Positions 18,430-38,260 of a stretch of 64,000 bases of DNA are shown piece by piece. The position numbers and the translations under genes were made by a program. Below the pieces are notes generated by a model. The model ran no database searches, was not told the DNA's origin, and was given only the letters and a program-made list of their open reading frames with translations. This DNA comes from a phage, in sequence record PZ179882.1. One strand, 5' to 3'. Every line of letters begins with the position of its first letter. Within the stretch, counting starts at the first letter, position 1.

Positions 18430-20243
18430 TGGTGTTTAACCCTATGCATGATTTCTTTATTTTTTCCAAGATTAAATCCGCGCTCGTTCGGATTTCCCAA
18501 ATAGCCACATGTTCTTCTTATTGTGTTCATCTTTTTAGGATCAGTTTCTCCACAAATAGAACAAACAAATCCGTTTTCAGTAGGAGTCATTTCATGGGTA
18601 CTTCCACACGTAAAACATTTATCTACTGGCATATTAACACCAAAATAATCTAAATGTTGTGCAGCATAATCCCATACAGCCTCAAGACCTTTTAGATTAT
18701 TTTTCATATCAGGAAGTTCAACATAAGAAATGTGACCGCCTGTCGCGATGAAATGATATGGGGCTTCGCGAGAAATCTTTTCAAACGGAGTAATATTTTC
18801 TTCTACTGAAACATGGAAACTGTTAGTGTACCAGCCTTTATCGGTAACATCTTTTACACTTCCATATTTTTCGGTATCAAGTTTACAGAAGCGATAGCAC
18901 AGGTTTTCAGCAGGAGTAGAATACAAGCTAAAAGCAAAACCAGTTCTTTCAGTCCACTGCTTAAGATGAGCATTCATTTTAGTTAAAATTTCTTGTCCAA
19001 TATCACGACCGACAAGAATATTCAATTCGTGAATACCAATGTATCCTAAGGACACTGAACTTCTACCGTTTTTAAATAACTCAATTATATCGTCATCGGG
19101 TTTAAGACGAACCCCGAATGCACCTTCTTGATAAAGAATAGGAGCAACAGTAGCTTTAACTCCTTTTAAGGAACTAATTCTACACATCAATGCTTCAAAA
19201 CATAAATTCATTCGCTCATTGAACAATTCAGTAAATTTCTGTTCATTGAACTGTGTTCCAATATAAGAATCTAACGCAATACGAGGAAGATTCAGTGTTA
19301 CAACACCAAGATTATTACGTCCATCAAGAATTTCATTACCAGTCGAATCTTTCCATACGCCCAAGAAACTACGGCAACCCATTGGAGAAACAGGAATAGA
19401 TGAACCAGTGATAGCTTTATTGTTCTTAGCTGAAATAATATCAGGATACATTCTTTTGCTTGCACACTCTAGAGCAAGCTGCTTAATATCATAGTTCGGA
19501 TCGTCTTTATAAAGATTAACACCCTCTTCAACGAACATAACAAGTTTAGGGAAAATAGGAGTTATCCCATCACGACCGAGACCTTTAATACGATTTTTCA
19601 GAATTGCTTTCTGAATCATTCGTTCAGTCCAGTCAGTTCCAGTACCAAATGTAATTGTTACAAAAGGCGTTTGTCCATTTGAACTAAAGAGAGTATTTAC
19701 TTCATATTCATAAGCTTGGAACGCATCGTATACGTCTTTTTCTGTTTTAGATTGGGCATAATTCAATGCATCAGCGATTTGCCATTTTTCTGCGTCCTCA
19801 ATATGTTTTGCATAGGTGCGTTTAACATAAGGAGAAAGTACTTTGTCTACATTCGCAAAAGTCGTTCCGCCGTATTGATGGGAAGCAACTTGCGCAGTAA
19901 TTTGCGCCATAATTGCAGTAGCAACGCCAATTGATTTAGGAGTTTCAATCTGTGCATTACCAAGCTTAAATCCGTTTTCAAGCATTCCTTTTAAATCTAC
20001 TAAACAGCAATTAGTAAATGGAAGAGCAGGGGAATAATCAATATCGTGGAAATGGATAATTCCGCTTTCATGCGCTTTCATAATAAAAGACGGGACCATA
20101 TTTTTGGCAATGTGTTTAGACACAATACCAGCCATAAGGTCCCGTTGAGTTGGAAAAACACGAGAATCTTTATTAGCATTCTCGTTTAAAAGGTCTTTAT
20201 TAGTTTTATGAATCAATCCTTCAATTTCTTTTTCAATTGTCAT
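18426..20243 (-). CDS. nrdD: anaerobic ribonucleoside-triphosphate reductase, uninterrupted
   Basis: 605 aa continuous ORF; C-terminal glycyl-radical motif RRTCGYLG and Zn-ribbon cysteines. No intron present. Confidence 0.93.
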   Translation of the reverse strand: MTIEKEIEGLIHKTNKDLLNENANKDSRVFPTQRDLMAGIVSKHIAKNMVPSFIMKAHESGIIHFHDIDYSPALPFTNCCLVDLKGMLENGFKLGNAQIETPKSIGVATAIMAQITAQVASHQYGGTTFANVDKVLSPYVKRTYAKHIEDAEKWQIADALNYAQSKTEKDVYDAFQAYEYEVNTLFSSNGQTPFVTITFGTGTDWTERMIQKAILKNRIKGLGRDGITPIFPKLVMFVEEGVNLYKDDPNYDIKQLALECASKRMYPDIISAKNNKAITGSSIPVSPMGCRSFLGVWKDSTGNEILDGRNNLGVVTLNLPRIALDSYIGTQFNEQKFTELFNERMNLCFEALMCRISSLKGVKATVAPILYQEGAFGVRLKPDDDIIELFKNGRSSVSLGYIGIHELNILVGRDIGQEILTKMNAHLKQWTERTGFAFSLYSTPAENLCYRFCKLDTEKYGSVKDVTDKGWYTNSFHVSVEENITPFEKISREAPYHFIATGGHISYVELPDMKNNLKGLEAVWDYAAQHLDYFGVNMPVDKCFTCGSTHEMTPTENGFVCSICGETDPKKMNTIRRTCGYLGNPNERGFNLGKNKEIMHRVKHQ

Positions 20244-20713
20244 TTTAAACTCTTTCTAAGCTGCTTCTTAAATGAAGCTATTAACTGTGTTTTAGTATCA
20301 GATTCATTATATTCAAATCCTCTTTGAAGCATCTCGGCCATCATTTCCTCTTTTCCTAAACGAGAAAATTCCTTTGATTTATCTCCAACAAAGTTAGGGT
20401 GAATATTATTTTGGGTGTAATCGGATTTTAAATAAGTAAGTAAATTTTCTAACCATTCAAGATAATCAACACCTTGTCCCTTTAAGCCAGAACGATTAAA
20501 TTTATGCTTCATTTGACCTTCTGCGGCATTGCAGAGATTACAAAGCAATCCACGTATCTTTCCTGCTTTTGGTCCATTTAATTCATGGTCATGATCAAGA
20601 TGATTAGCTTGAACATCAGGATTTAGTTCTCGTTGGCAAATTAAGCATTTACCGTTTTGTGCATTATAAAATTTTTGTTTTTCTTCTTTGTATAATTTGC
20701 CAGTCAATAACAT
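20240..20713 (-). CDS. 49: endonuclease VII (Holliday junction resolvase)
   Basis: 157 aa with CLICQ and HxH plus CNLCN zinc-binding motifs; size matches T4 gp49. Confidence 0.9.
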   Translation of the reverse strand: MLLTGKLYKEEKQKFYNAQNGKCLICQRELNPDVQANHLDHDHELNGPKAGKIRGLLCNLCNAAEGQMKHKFNRSGLKGQGVDYLEWLENLLTYLKSDYTQNNIHPNFVGDKSKEFSRLGKEEMMAEMLQRGFEYNESDTKTQLIASFKKQLRKSLK

Positions 20714-20720
20714 AATAAAA

Positions 20721-20745
20721 CCCTTACCTTAAATAGATAAGGGTA
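20721..20745 (-). promoter_or_regulatory. hairpin immediately upstream of the gene 49 start
   Basis: acccttaccttaaatagataagggt forms a 7-bp stem. A structure sequestering the gene 49 initiation region in long transcripts is known in T4. Confidence 0.4.
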
Positions 20746-20755
20746 TTTATTATTT

Positions 20756-20932
20756 TTAAGTATTGTAAAACATTCGATGCAATCGTTTATACTGTCGAAT
20801 CATCTTTTTAGTAGGACGAGAATAGGTTCCTACGCAAGTGGTCATATGAGGGTCCGTAGAATGTCCTTTAATAAAAAGTTTCCAAACCTTACCGCCATTT
20901 AACTTTTCAGTATAAACCAATTCGGTTTTCAT
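20756..20932 (-). CDS. small ORF (58 aa) with a pin-like C-terminus
   Basis: Hand translation: MKTELVYTEKLNGGKVWKLFIKGHSTDPHMTTCVGTYSRPTKKMIRQYKRLHRMFYNT. The last 14 aa nearly repeat the Pin C-terminus. Below the 60-aa ORF-track cutoff. Confidence 0.35.
   Translation of the reverse strand: MKTELVYTEKLNGGKVWKLFIKGHSTDPHMTTCVGTYSRPTKKMIRQYKRLHRMFYNT
20759..20812. repeat. direct repeat copy A (about 52 bp; partner at 20974-21027)
   Basis: tattgtaaaacattcgatgcaatcgtttatactgtcgaat... versus tattataaaacatttgatgcaatcgcttatattgccgaat..., roughly 85 percent identical. Confidence 0.6.
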
Positions 20933-20969
20933 TAAAATGTCCTGTCAGAAAAAGAATTTTGAGTTTTTT

Positions 20970-21455
20970 TCAAGTATTATAAAACATTTGATGCAATCGC
21001 TTATATTGCCGAATCTTTTGGTCAGAAAAAGAAATTTGAGTTTCAAGCCATTCAATGTACTCTGCGGCAGCTTGCATCAGGTTACCTTCATAGCCATCGT
21101 TATTTTCTTGCGCAGCTAATTTAGCTAATGCGTATGAAATACGTTCACCTTGAAAAGAGGCTTCAGGCTTCTGAACATCTTGGCTAGTTCTCTCTACAAC
21201 TTCTTCAATTTCGCCATTTTCGACTGATTCAGTATTCCACAAGCACCAATACGTAATTGGCTTATCGTAGATGTTAATAATCTTTCCGTCGGAAAGTTCA
21301 ATTTCAATAATTCCAGTATCAGGTTCTATATCATCTTCACATTCTTTTGCAAGTTCACGAACTTTAAAGACAGTACCTGCACTAAGTTCCGGCCAGTAAT
21401 TACACAGCCCTATATCAACACGATTAATTCTAAACCACTTATCTACTGTAATCAT
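20970..21455 (-). CDS. pin: protease inhibitor Pin
   Basis: 161 aa from the ATG giving MITVDKWFRINRV; the ORF track extends it to a TTG. Size and position after gene 49 as in T4. Confidence 0.7.
   Translation of the reverse strand: MITVDKWFRINRVDIGLCNYWPELSAGTVFKVRELAKECEDDIEPDTGIIEIELSDGKIINIYDKPITYWCLWNTESVENGEIEEVVERTSQDVQKPEASFQGERISYALAKLAAQENNDGYEGNLMQAAAEYIEWLETQISFSDQKIRQYKRLHQMFYNT
20974..21027. repeat. direct repeat copy B (inside the pin 3' end)
   Basis: Partner of 20759-20812; a second short repeat gtcagaaaaagaa(a/t)tttgagttt occurs at 20943-20966 and 21021-21044. Confidence 0.6.
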
Positions 21456-21750
21456 GTCCCATCTCCATATCAATTAAGTCATTTATCGTTGGTTCATTAT
21501 ATACTGTTTCTTCATCAGTGTAAACCGGTTCTTCCGGCTCTGGCTCTACAGTTTCCCATCTAGCCGCCCACCAAGGTTTAACCCCGAAGCTTATTAAGTT
21601 CTTCATAATCAATCCAGGATTCTAATCCTGATGGCAAATCAGATTCAATTTCCCAAAGAAGCTCTTCAATTTTCTGAAGACGATCTAGTTCTTCGGCTGG
21701 AATAGTAACCATTGACGGAGCTCGTGATACATTAATATCGTAAATCATAT

Positions 21751-21966
21751 TTACCCCAATTTAACCATACAATCGCCGTATTTCCACTTAGAAATAGACT
21801 TTTCACCATTAGAATAATAAACTTCGAGTTTAGCACGATTATTTTTAATTTGAATAACCTTGGCTGTCATCAAAGTTCCATACCCATAATAAACTGCAAC
21901 TTCATCACCTACATATACCGCGCTTCCGCGGTAATCATGAATATAGTCAGTTCCTTCGAGCATCAT
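21751..21966 (-). CDS. hypothetical protein
   Basis: 71 aa ORF just downstream of nrdC. Confidence 0.45.
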   Translation of the reverse strand: MMLEGTDYIHDYRGSAVYVGDEVAVYYGYGTLMTAKVIQIKNNRAKLEVYYSNGEKSISKWKYGDCMVKLG

Positions 21967-22226
21967 TTAAAATATTCTCGCAGTTGGTCAAATCCACCAA
22001 TATGACTTCCATCAGGAGCAAATACCTGGGGCATTGTCAAGCCGATTTGAGTATCACGACCTAGTTTAGTCAGAAGCTCAGCAATTTTCTCATCATCAAA
22101 AACACCTTTTTCCGGCATAATGTTGATAAATTCAAACGGCTGTTTCTTCACGGTCAAAAGACGTTTTGCATTATCGCAATACACACATTTATGAATGTTG
22201 CTATCATAACCATATACTTTAAACAT
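21963..22226 (-). CDS. nrdC: thioredoxin/glutaredoxin NrdC
   Basis: 87 aa with CVYC redox motif. Confidence 0.88.
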   Translation of the reverse strand: MFKVYGYDSNIHKCVYCDNAKRLLTVKKQPFEFINIMPEKGVFDDEKIAELLTKLGRDTQIGLTMPQVFAPDGSHIGGFDQLREYFK

Positions 22227-22227
22227 A

Positions 22228-22470
22228 TTATTCCTTAATTCCTAGTACTTGTTTAAAAGTCTCGTCGTAATCAAGACTTTGGCCCGTTTGTTCTTTATGT
22301 TTGTATATAATATCACTTACTTCTGATAGCATATTTTTATATGAACGAGTTAAAGCAGATTTAAGCACGCTGTATCTATCAGGAAATTTACCATGTTCAT
22401 TATAATAAGCTATTGCTAATTCACGGACTGCCTTTTCAGCAGCCTCCATATATTCTTTACGCTTGGTCAT
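22228..22470 (-). CDS. hypothetical protein (nrdC.1 position)
   Basis: 80 aa ORF. Confidence 0.45.
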
Positions 22471-22472
22471 TT

Positions 22473-22862
22473 TTAATCCAAAATATTATTAGGCATTGGT
22501 TGAACACTCACAAGTTCTTTAAAGAACTCAGTAGAGTCAGGCAATTTAACCATTTCCGGAGCATGCTTACTGAATTTATGTTTACATTGACGGCATTTAT
22601 ATTCAAGCTCTGGTTTACGCCAGTTAATCAATTGAACTTGTTCAGTACCGCATTCAGGGCAATTAGGAACGTTTTTAGAAGCTCTTTCACGTCGTTCAAC
22701 CATAGCCATAATAGCATCCCATGCTGGAGGTTTAAAATCTAAATCGTCGCAGCCGTGAATCTTTCCACGCATTTCTAGATCGTCTTCTTCACCAGCCATA
22801 ATAATTTTAATTAAACTGGAATTACTTGAAGCTGCAATGTCTTCTAATAAACGCTTTTTCAT
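22473..22862 (-). CDS. zinc-ribbon protein
   Basis: 129 aa; CPECG ... CRQCKH cysteine pairs. Confidence 0.5.
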
Positions 22863-23788
22863 TTCAATACCTCAATAGCATTACGTAAACCATTTGCTTT
22901 GGCGGTTAAAGCCTTAAGAACTTTAGTATGATCTTCAATCTGTTTTTCAACTTCAATTAAGCGTGTATTAAGATATTCGCGTTCTTCGCTCAGATTATCA
23001 GCCTTTTCTGCTTTAGGTTCTTTTACAACTGGCTTATACGTATTAGGGTTCTTCAATTTAATTAGAATGCGTGAACTGTATAACATTGAACCATTATCTT
23101 CGGTTTCATCATACATTTCCACTACGTCCATCATCTCCACCATCGTGCAGAGTTTATAAGACAACGAACGAATAGTTTTGTTGTGCTTATTAATTTCTCT
23201 AGCTGTCATGGTGCCGAGATTACGTGAGTAATAATAAGGAACCTGGATATTAATTAATACTGATGAACCACCTGGCTTGTGTGTTACTTCATCAGCAATA
23301 ACCCAGTCCTTAACATGAACTGTATTTGTACGGTCATCGCCCGCGGTAAATAGTTTACGAGCATGCTTAAAAAGCATATTCACTTGGTCATTGAATTGAC
23401 AGGCGAATTTATCAGCAAATTTAGTTTCAGGAATGGTAGATAACCAATCAGCCAAATGGGTCTTTTTAACATCGTTAACAATAGTAAATTCAACCAAATC
23501 GGTTATAGATGTCGCAGATTTAATGAAGCTCGGCTTCATAAAGTTTTTAATGTTATCACTAGCTACAGTAGAAGATAACAGACGAGAACGTTTAAACCAT
23601 TGAAGCAAATTGCCTAACGAATGAGAATAAGCGTTTTGAGTATCTTTACAGATATGATTTTCCTGGCCAACATATTGAAGGAAATCACGAAGAATATTAT
23701 TGATTACTGCTCTGTGCCCGATCTGATAATTACGATGTTTAGTAATAAGACTGTCAAAATAATCAATATAATGTTTACGAGTTTTCAT
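22859..23788 (-). CDS. hypothetical protein with C-terminal coiled coil
   Basis: 309 aa; N-terminus MKTRKHYIDYF; C-terminal heptad-like helix. Confidence 0.5.
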   Translation of the reverse strand: MKTRKHYIDYFDSLITKHRNYQIGHRAVINNILRDFLQYVGQENHICKDTQNAYSHSLGNLLQWFKRSRLLSSTVASDNIKNFMKPSFIKSATSITDLVEFTIVNDVKKTHLADWLSTIPETKFADKFACQFNDQVNMLFKHARKLFTAGDDRTNTVHVKDWVIADEVTHKPGGSSVLINIQVPYYYSRNLGTMTAREINKHNKTIRSLSYKLCTMVEMMDVVEMYDETEDNGSMLYSSRILIKLKNPNTYKPVVKEPKAEKADNLSEEREYLNTRLIEVEKQIEDHTKVLKALTAKANGLRNAIEVLK

Positions 23789-24843: not shown

Positions 24844-24871
24844 TTAATCTCCTCAGTAGAAAGTAAGAACA

Positions 24872-24901
24872 TTATACCACATCCTTGTGGTAAAGTAAAC
24901 T
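24872..24901 (-). promoter_or_regulatory. T4-type early promoter
   Basis: Minus strand GTTTAC, spacer, TATAAT. Confidence 0.5.
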
Positions 24902-38228: not shown

Positions 38229-38257
38229 ATTATACCACAGTCAAGAGGAAAAGTAAA
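38229..38257 (-). promoter_or_regulatory. T4-type early promoter
   Basis: Minus strand GTTTAC, spacer, TATAAT. Confidence 0.55.
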
Positions 38258-38260
38258 CAG

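Follow-up and report, generated by a model that had tools for sequence, protein, structure and literature searches.

The window analysed here is a stretch of 64,000 nucleotides (record PZ179882.1) from the genome of a T4-like phage of the genus Tequatrovirus. The genes around the interval follow one another on the minus strand in the order nrdC, DUF7205 gene, 56-aa gene, 49.1, pin, DUF7279 ORF, gene 49 (endonuclease VII) and nrdD. The features considered below are as follows.

21963-22226, minus strand: nrdC
21751-21966, minus strand: 71-aa DUF7205 gene (RB32ORF082c type; T6 name "Gp49.3"), between nrdC and the 56-aa gene
21578-21748, minus strand: 56-aa gene, ortholog of T6 "Gp49.2" (RB32ORF081c / RB69ORF091c type; phrog_3402)
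21439-21606, minus strand: ortholog of gene 49.1, 55 aa; ATG at 21606, stop codon at 21441-21439
21578-21606, minus strand: overlap of the 56-aa gene and 49.1, 29 nt
21582-21585, minus strand: run of four G (G4) one base before the stop codon of the 56-aa gene (CTTCGGGGTTAA); natural indel site
21496-21525, minus strand: promoter motif of the T4 early type, GTTTACA-N17-TATAAT, within the 49.1 coding sequence
20970-21455, minus strand: pin, inhibitor of the host Lon protease, 161 aa; ATG at 21455
20756-20932, minus strand: 58-aa DUF7279 ORF, between pin and gene 49

A 701-base segment around the junction of the 56-aa gene and 49.1 had 99.9% identity to Escherichia phages OES_C-1, OES_C-2 and OES_C-3 and an identity of 95% or more to over 500 further records. 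The upstream ORF is translated as MIYDINVSRAPSMVTIPAEELDRLQKIEELLWEIESDLPSGLESWIDYEELNKLRG and ends with TAA at 21580-21578, while the downstream ORF encodes 55 aa from the ATG at 21606 (MKNLISFGVKPWW...), or 57 aa from an alternative TTG at 21612. A sequence-only reading of this interval had described both minus-strand ORFs, and its translations proved correct, with no hand-translation error. It had put their overlap at about 30 nt in the +1 frame; the exact value is 29 nt (21578-21606), the second ORF being +1 relative to the first. It had also noted that the second ORF overlaps the start of pin, and this overlap is 17 nt, the 49.1 stop codon (21441-21439) lying inside pin (ATG 21455). Annotations of both genes already exist, among T4, T6, RB69 and hundreds of relatives, and a function has been published for the upstream one.

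On the other side of pin, the 58-aa DUF7279 ORF, which T4 does not have, shares the C-terminal residues IRQYKRLH[R/Q]MFYNT with pin. This part of the window also contains a 52-nt direct repeat (87% identical; 20750-20801 and 20964-21015) and a 23-nt direct repeat (96% identical; 20944-20966 and 21021-21043), and the ORF has the appearance of an insertion by which the 3' end of pin was duplicated. Between gene 49 and this ORF, an Rfam scan of 20000-23000 gave a sub-threshold match to ohsC_RNA at 20712-20783 on the minus strand (26.5 bits against a gathering score of 50; E 0.41), which is probably due to chance; a terminator-like hairpin at 20720-20744 adjoins it.

The upstream gene and T6 Gp49.2

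We compared the 56-aa protein with known phage protein families. In the PHROG profile search, it matched phrog_3402 over 56/56 profile positions (E 2.6e-40), and it shared 54 of 56 residues (96% identity) with the T6 protein annotated as RB32ORF081c. The T6 protein was recently named Gp49.2 and, when expressed alone, abolished OLD-mediated defence against T2, T4 and T6 (PMC13096335, Nat Commun 2026; Fig. 5f and source data). OLD (overcoming lysogenization defect) is a nuclease, which T6 Gp49.2 reportedly blocks by binding its ATPase domain (PMC13096335). In that study, T6 gp49.2 was cloned from ATGATTTACGAT... to ...CGGGGTTAA, and the T6 primers (ATGATTTACGATATTAGT... and the reverse complement of ...AAGCTTCGGGGTTAA) as well as residues M13, T15 and W32 match the 56-aa ORF exactly. 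Relative to T6 Gp49.2, the protein in the window carries two substitutions, N6S and A10T, and retains all three residues that were mutated in the T6 work. The neighbours (the 71-aa DUF7205 gene upstream and 49.1 downstream) and the junction sequence are the same in both phages. Since T6 Gp49.2 is active alone with exactly these boundaries, the 56-aa ORF represents a functional protein in its own right. Judged by its sequence, it would be a small acidic helical inhibitor of OLD defence, an activity that has been demonstrated for the T6 protein.

The 56-aa gene is under purifying selection, with dN/dS of ~0.1-0.2 across genera. The best-conserved part of the protein is its C-terminus, ...LPSGLESWIDxEELxxLRG, and the end point ...LRG was identical in every genomic context, whatever gene comes next. 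Longer relatives (99-153 aa) were all N-terminal fusions to other small proteins of the region, and none of them runs into 49.1. In these longer proteins (P0092, P0094 and P0032-P0041; L008 573-929), the anti-OLD domain forms the C-terminal domain, and its fusion partners are a T4-49.3-like domain, a T4-49.2-like domain (PF26835) and a Mosigvirus-specific N-domain of ~60 aa, which hints at joint action of these small neighbouring proteins.

Two other assignments of the 56-aa protein were considered and rejected. PHROG labels the family "antitoxin from a toxin-antitoxin system", which would imply a ribbon-helix-helix or RelB-type protein. However, no antitoxin Pfam family matched at E<=1, no toxin-like gene lies next to it, and the AF2 model consisted of two helices (pLDDT 78) with no N-terminal strand. 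Foldseek comparison of this model with the PDB gave no match, and a PDB sequence search with the protein returned noise only. The HHpred match of T6 Gp49.2 to RelB3 was likewise weak (probability 79%, E 8.8; PMC13096335). The second candidate, the T7 Gp5.9 inhibitor of RecBCD (PF25708), scored 20.2 bits against a cut-off of 24.5 and covered residues 13-31 only (phrog_6234, E 9.7e-4). Note that T6 "Gp49.2" and T4 gene 49.2 (106 aa, Pfam PF26835) are unrelated proteins despite the shared name. The T4 RefSeq record calls its gene 49.2 (L003 3507-3827) "ribonucleotide reductase", and many records copy this label or give "nucleotide reductase subunit C". Neither "ribonucleotide reductase" for T4 49.2 nor "antitoxin" for the 56-aa gene is supported by our searches.

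Conservation of gene 49.1

The 55-aa protein matched phrog_2382 over profile positions 1-51 of 51 (E 1.7e-33); its homologs carry the precomputed Pfam family PF26863, and a search of the local Pfam library gave no match. It consists of a conserved core, K10-R55 (46 aa; 21579-21442), and a variable leader, residues 1-9, whose codons lie within the upstream gene. The core shows 100% identity to that of T4 gp49.1 (NP_049695, UniProt P39490; PHROG 2382; PF26863), and over its full length the protein shares 96% identity with T6 gp49.1. T4 49.1 (51 aa) also lies directly upstream of pin, with the same 17-nt overlap, is of the same size class and contains the embedded promoter motif too. On the other hand, the leader is MKNLISFGV here and MDYAI in T4, because the upstream gene differs. 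The overlap with that gene measures 29 nt here, with 49.1 in the +1 frame, as against 16 nt and the -1 frame in T4.

We fetched 11 loci from Tequatrovirus, Mosigvirus, Gaprivervirus, Gelderlandvirus, Moonvirus, Winklervirus, Jiaodavirus and others. The core, KPW[WY]xARWETVEPE...NEP..N[DE]L[IL]D.E, was an open frame in 11/11 of these loci, covering at least 8 genera of the Tevenvirinae, with residues K10, P11, E21, P22, P39 and D46 invariant and all indels being multiples of three. Pairwise dN/dS between the source phage and Mosigvirus, Gaprivervirus, S16 and Merlin was ~0.1-0.3, and that against X20 and JD18, which are poorly alignable, was 0.5-0.7. Given the full-length PHROG matches and purifying selection across genera, each of the two ORFs is more than a chance open frame.

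An exhaustive HMMER search with 49.1 against 1.84 billion representatives returned 13 proteins, all of 47-70 aa. The core starts within residues 1-13 in these proteins, one of which begins directly at MKPWY; the exception is a 70-aa chimera that matches from residue 1 (P0006; UniRef A0A173GAH3, Escherichia phage UFV-AREG1). The chimera joins the first 24 residues of 49.1 to a fragment of T4-type 49.2; it arose either by recombination or through an assembly error in an earlier release of the UFV-AREG1 genome.

At the protein level, the classification table in the supplement of PMC9697503 lists T4 gp49.1 (P39490) in the class "early RNA, late protein". For T4, which is not the source phage, this entry implies that gp49.1 was detected as a protein. 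When T6 Gp49.1 was cloned by itself, from ATGAAGAACTTAATAAGC..., OLD was unaffected (PMC13096335). In the AF2 model, 49.1 was mostly coil apart from a short helix spanning residues 41-49 (pLDDT 68, pTM 0.25), and a PDB search gave no match. The 49.1 product is strongly acidic and, as modelled, would be a largely disordered protein of ~50 aa.

The two genes occur independently of each other

The sequence-only reading had offered two explanations, namely two tightly overlapping genes or one gene of roughly 100 aa disrupted by a frameshift, and had proposed a comparison with T4 and its relatives. The same two annotated CDSs were found in fFiEco06, U115, T6 and RB69, and the same two ORFs with the same junction in T6, RB69, fFiEco06 and ~200 other phage records. 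In T4, 49.1 lies behind the unrelated 106-aa gene 49.2, and the 56-aa gene is absent. DNA homology between T4 and the source phage begins at the upstream stop codon (T4 ...GCTATAAAACCTTGGTGG, here ...GGGGTTAAACCTTGGTGG), and the proteins are identical from K-P-W-W onward. The order in RB6, S16 and Merlin is 56-aa gene, 49.2, 49.1; in JD18 and X20, one or two other genes lie between the 56-aa gene and 49.1; and in RZ, 49.1 follows a 49.3-like gene and has a GTG start. The 49.1 core is found behind four unrelated upstream genes. Its frame is +1 relative to the 56-aa-type and RZ-type genes and -1 relative to the 49.2-type and JD18-type genes, and an in-frame ATG or GTG located 3-9 codons (3-27 nt) before the core is kept in all four contexts.

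We also looked for proteins in which the two are fused. None was present in word-indexed searches of 5.8 billion clusters, which returned proteins of 48-70 aa related to 49.1, and relatives of the 56-aa protein with either the conserved C-terminus or a tail of at most 11 residues (the G5 tail described below). Nor was any fused protein found among the 1.84 billion representatives in the exhaustive HMMER search with the 49.1 query. Of the two explanations, that of two tightly overlapping genes therefore stood and that of a single disrupted gene did not, as relatives carry the genes separately with the same boundaries, which the sequence-only reading had itself named as grounds for refutation, and no fusion was found. 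We conclude, with a probability of roughly 0.93, that the interval holds two independent protein-coding Tequatrovirus genes whose ends overlap, the upstream one being the ortholog of T6 Gp49.2 and the downstream one 49.1. Overlapping gene ends are usual in T4-like genomes.

The G-run at the junction

According to the single-gene explanation, an ancestral gene of ~100 aa was broken by a frameshift mutation or a sequencing error and is now a pseudogene. Deleting one G of the G4 run (21582-21585) would indeed join the frames into an ORF of ~100 aa, and the run is demonstrably prone to indels. We therefore queried a phage collection with the junction in its G3, G4 and G5 versions. The G3 junction, which would fuse the frames, was absent from all 50,697 phage genomes, while the G4 junction region was found in ~200 phage records, 130 of which were identical across the 62-nt query. 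The G5 query gave no exact match; isolates G28 and G2133 aligned with it over all 63 nt with one mismatch. Reading the sequence of G28, an isolated phage, confirmed the G5 run, and G2133, with the same full-length alignment, probably carries G5 as well. Several metagenome contigs (L013-L017), which represent two lineages or more, likewise have the G5 run (protein variants P0016 and P0017); L018 620-632 is a further locus noted for the G4/G5 polymorphism.

In the G5 variants, the anti-OLD protein is lengthened to 67 aa by an 11-residue tail (...LRGLNLGGRLDGKL), and the frame of the 49.1 ATG stops after MKNLISFGG, so that the core, though intact, no longer has a start codon. Frameshift mutations thus do occur at the junction, but they part the genes further and reveal no fused ancestor. 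Against such an ancestor also stand the missing G3 junction and fused protein, the ~200 records that share the junction, the occurrence of the two halves apart and in other orders, the constant ...LRG end of the 56-aa protein and the activity of the T6 56-aa ORF alone against OLD (PMC13096335). The ancestral fusion is refuted by synteny and the fusion searches, and we assign it a negligible chance. The existence of G5 variants suggests that the phage can, in some conditions at least, do without 49.1; in these variants, it may be dispensable, recently lost or expressed in some other way.

Read in the 56-aa frame, the overlap itself encodes YEELNKLRG and the stop codon; read in the +1 frame, it gives the 49.1 leader MKNLISFGV(K). 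Between the source phage and RB69, 4/4 substitutions in the overlap were synonymous in the 56-aa frame and changed amino acids in the 49.1 frame, turning the leader MKNLISFGV into MKSSINSGV in RB69. Because these substitutions spare the upstream frame only, selection sees the C-terminus of the 56-aa protein and ignores the 49.1 leader.

These data also bear on the idea that programmed +1 ribosomal frameshifting near the stop codon yields a fusion of the 56-aa protein and 49.1 besides the 56-aa protein itself. The +1 frame of the overlap, the G-run within CGG GGU UAA and the weak Shine-Dalgarno sequence of 49.1 would all be compatible with such a shift, and genes of the prfB type likewise have a +1-frame ORF overlapping the end of the upstream one and a G-rich stretch near the stop. 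However, the junction does not have the CUU-stop slippery arrangement of prfB or a conserved site, the frame relation is variable, and independent start codons are conserved. The sequence-only reading had suggested looking for a slippery heptamer at the frame junction; neither a conserved heptamer nor a recognised +1 motif was found among the relatives, and O157 typing phage 6 has CGC GGT at this position. Moreover, behind the 49.2-type and JD18-type genes, the shift would have to be -1 rather than +1, an in-frame ATG or GTG precedes the core in every context, and the leader is free to vary, in contrast to the conserved upstream frame. Over 21560-21660, the RNA fold was no better than that of shuffled sequence (z = -0.24), and the Rfam scan of 20000-23000 gave no frameshift element. 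On balance, programmed frameshifting is very improbable. Note that a terminator-like hairpin at 21614-21631 lies inside coding sequence and is not conserved in O157 typing phage 6.

Signals for pin within 49.1

The coding sequence of 49.1 contains signals that point to the next gene. The motif at 21496-21525, ~40 nt before the pin ATG, is an exact GTTTAC-N18-TATAAT and matches the sigma-70 consensus at 11 of 12 positions. When one mismatch at most was allowed, this pattern occurred at 10 sites in the window, compared with 0.98 expected, and all of them were on the minus strand; other minus-strand sites include 24871-24900 and 38229-38258. In the codon alignment, Tequatrovirus, Gaprivervirus and S16 retain the motif, Mosigvirus has TATGAT as the -10 element, and Merlin has lost it. 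In addition, the Shine-Dalgarno sequence of pin, GGAG (21463-21466), is encoded by the C-terminal codons of 49.1. Judging from the motif, GTTTACA-N17-TATAAT within 49.1 is a probable early promoter of pin, and 49.1, carrying both signals, would double as the regulatory region of pin.

One may then ask whether 49.1 is a gene at all, or whether it is conserved solely because it houses the promoter and ribosome-binding site of pin. Besides the presence of these signals, the G5 variants, which break the 49.1 frame without obvious consequence, and the lack of an effect of T6 49.1 in the OLD assay (PMC13096335) would fit the latter view. However, dN/dS is ~0.1-0.3 for the closer genera, and the frame stays open, with indels in threes, across at least 8 genera. 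The best-conserved segment of 49.1 (KPWWAARWETVEPE) lies upstream of the promoter motif, and RB69 and S16 retain the ORF even though a gene other than pin comes next there. The family also has its own PHROG and Pfam entries, and T4 gp49.1 appears in the protein-level table cited above (PMC9697503 supplement). It is hence highly unlikely that 49.1 is not a gene, and we retain the reading of two overlapping protein-coding genes.

Proposed expression of 49.1

The 49.1 core starts at the upstream TAA, which overlaps the invariant lysine codon of 49.1 by 1-2 nt, the start codon lies inside the upstream gene, and the Shine-Dalgarno sequence is weak (GGA, 6 nt before the ATG). Together, these features suggest that 49.1 is probably translated by coupling to the upstream gene, with ribosomes starting at the nearby 49.1 ATG after completing the upstream gene or on opening its mRNA. 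Initiation at the ATG at 21606 would be preferred over the TTG at 21612, and the variable leader may be no more than a side effect of the overlap. In T-even phages, coupled overlapping genes with stop/start arrangements such as ATGA show a similarly tight same-strand packing, a start inside the upstream gene and a weak or absent Shine-Dalgarno sequence. In those genes, however, the overlap is usually 1-4 nt, whereas it is 13-29 nt for 49.1. Also unlike the usual coupled genes, 49.1 has its start supplied by four unrelated genes, and its core begins at their stop codon.

A more far-reaching proposal, which we consider unlikely though worth stating, is that 49.1 is a "portable" core with no start codon of its own, always coupled to termination, for which the G4/G5 run serves as an on/off switch. 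The 3' end of whatever gene recombination puts in front would then drive 49.1, and the switch would at once add the 11-residue tail to the anti-OLD protein. Related to this proposal is the equally doubtful idea that 49.1 encodes an unrecognised anti-defence peptide, since the island in which it sits is amplified under defence pressure and contains pin (anti-Lon) and the anti-OLD gene.

Implications

The annotation question is settled in favour of two genes, and a recent experimental function, anti-OLD activity, is attached to the upstream ORF. In practice, the name 49.2 is shared by unrelated proteins of T6 and T4, and there is no support for the labels "antitoxin" and "ribonucleotide reductase", which propagate in GenBank. 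The start codon that 49.1 borrows from its upstream gene, and the G-run indel that breaks 49.1 in some isolates, may be of interest to phage biologists.
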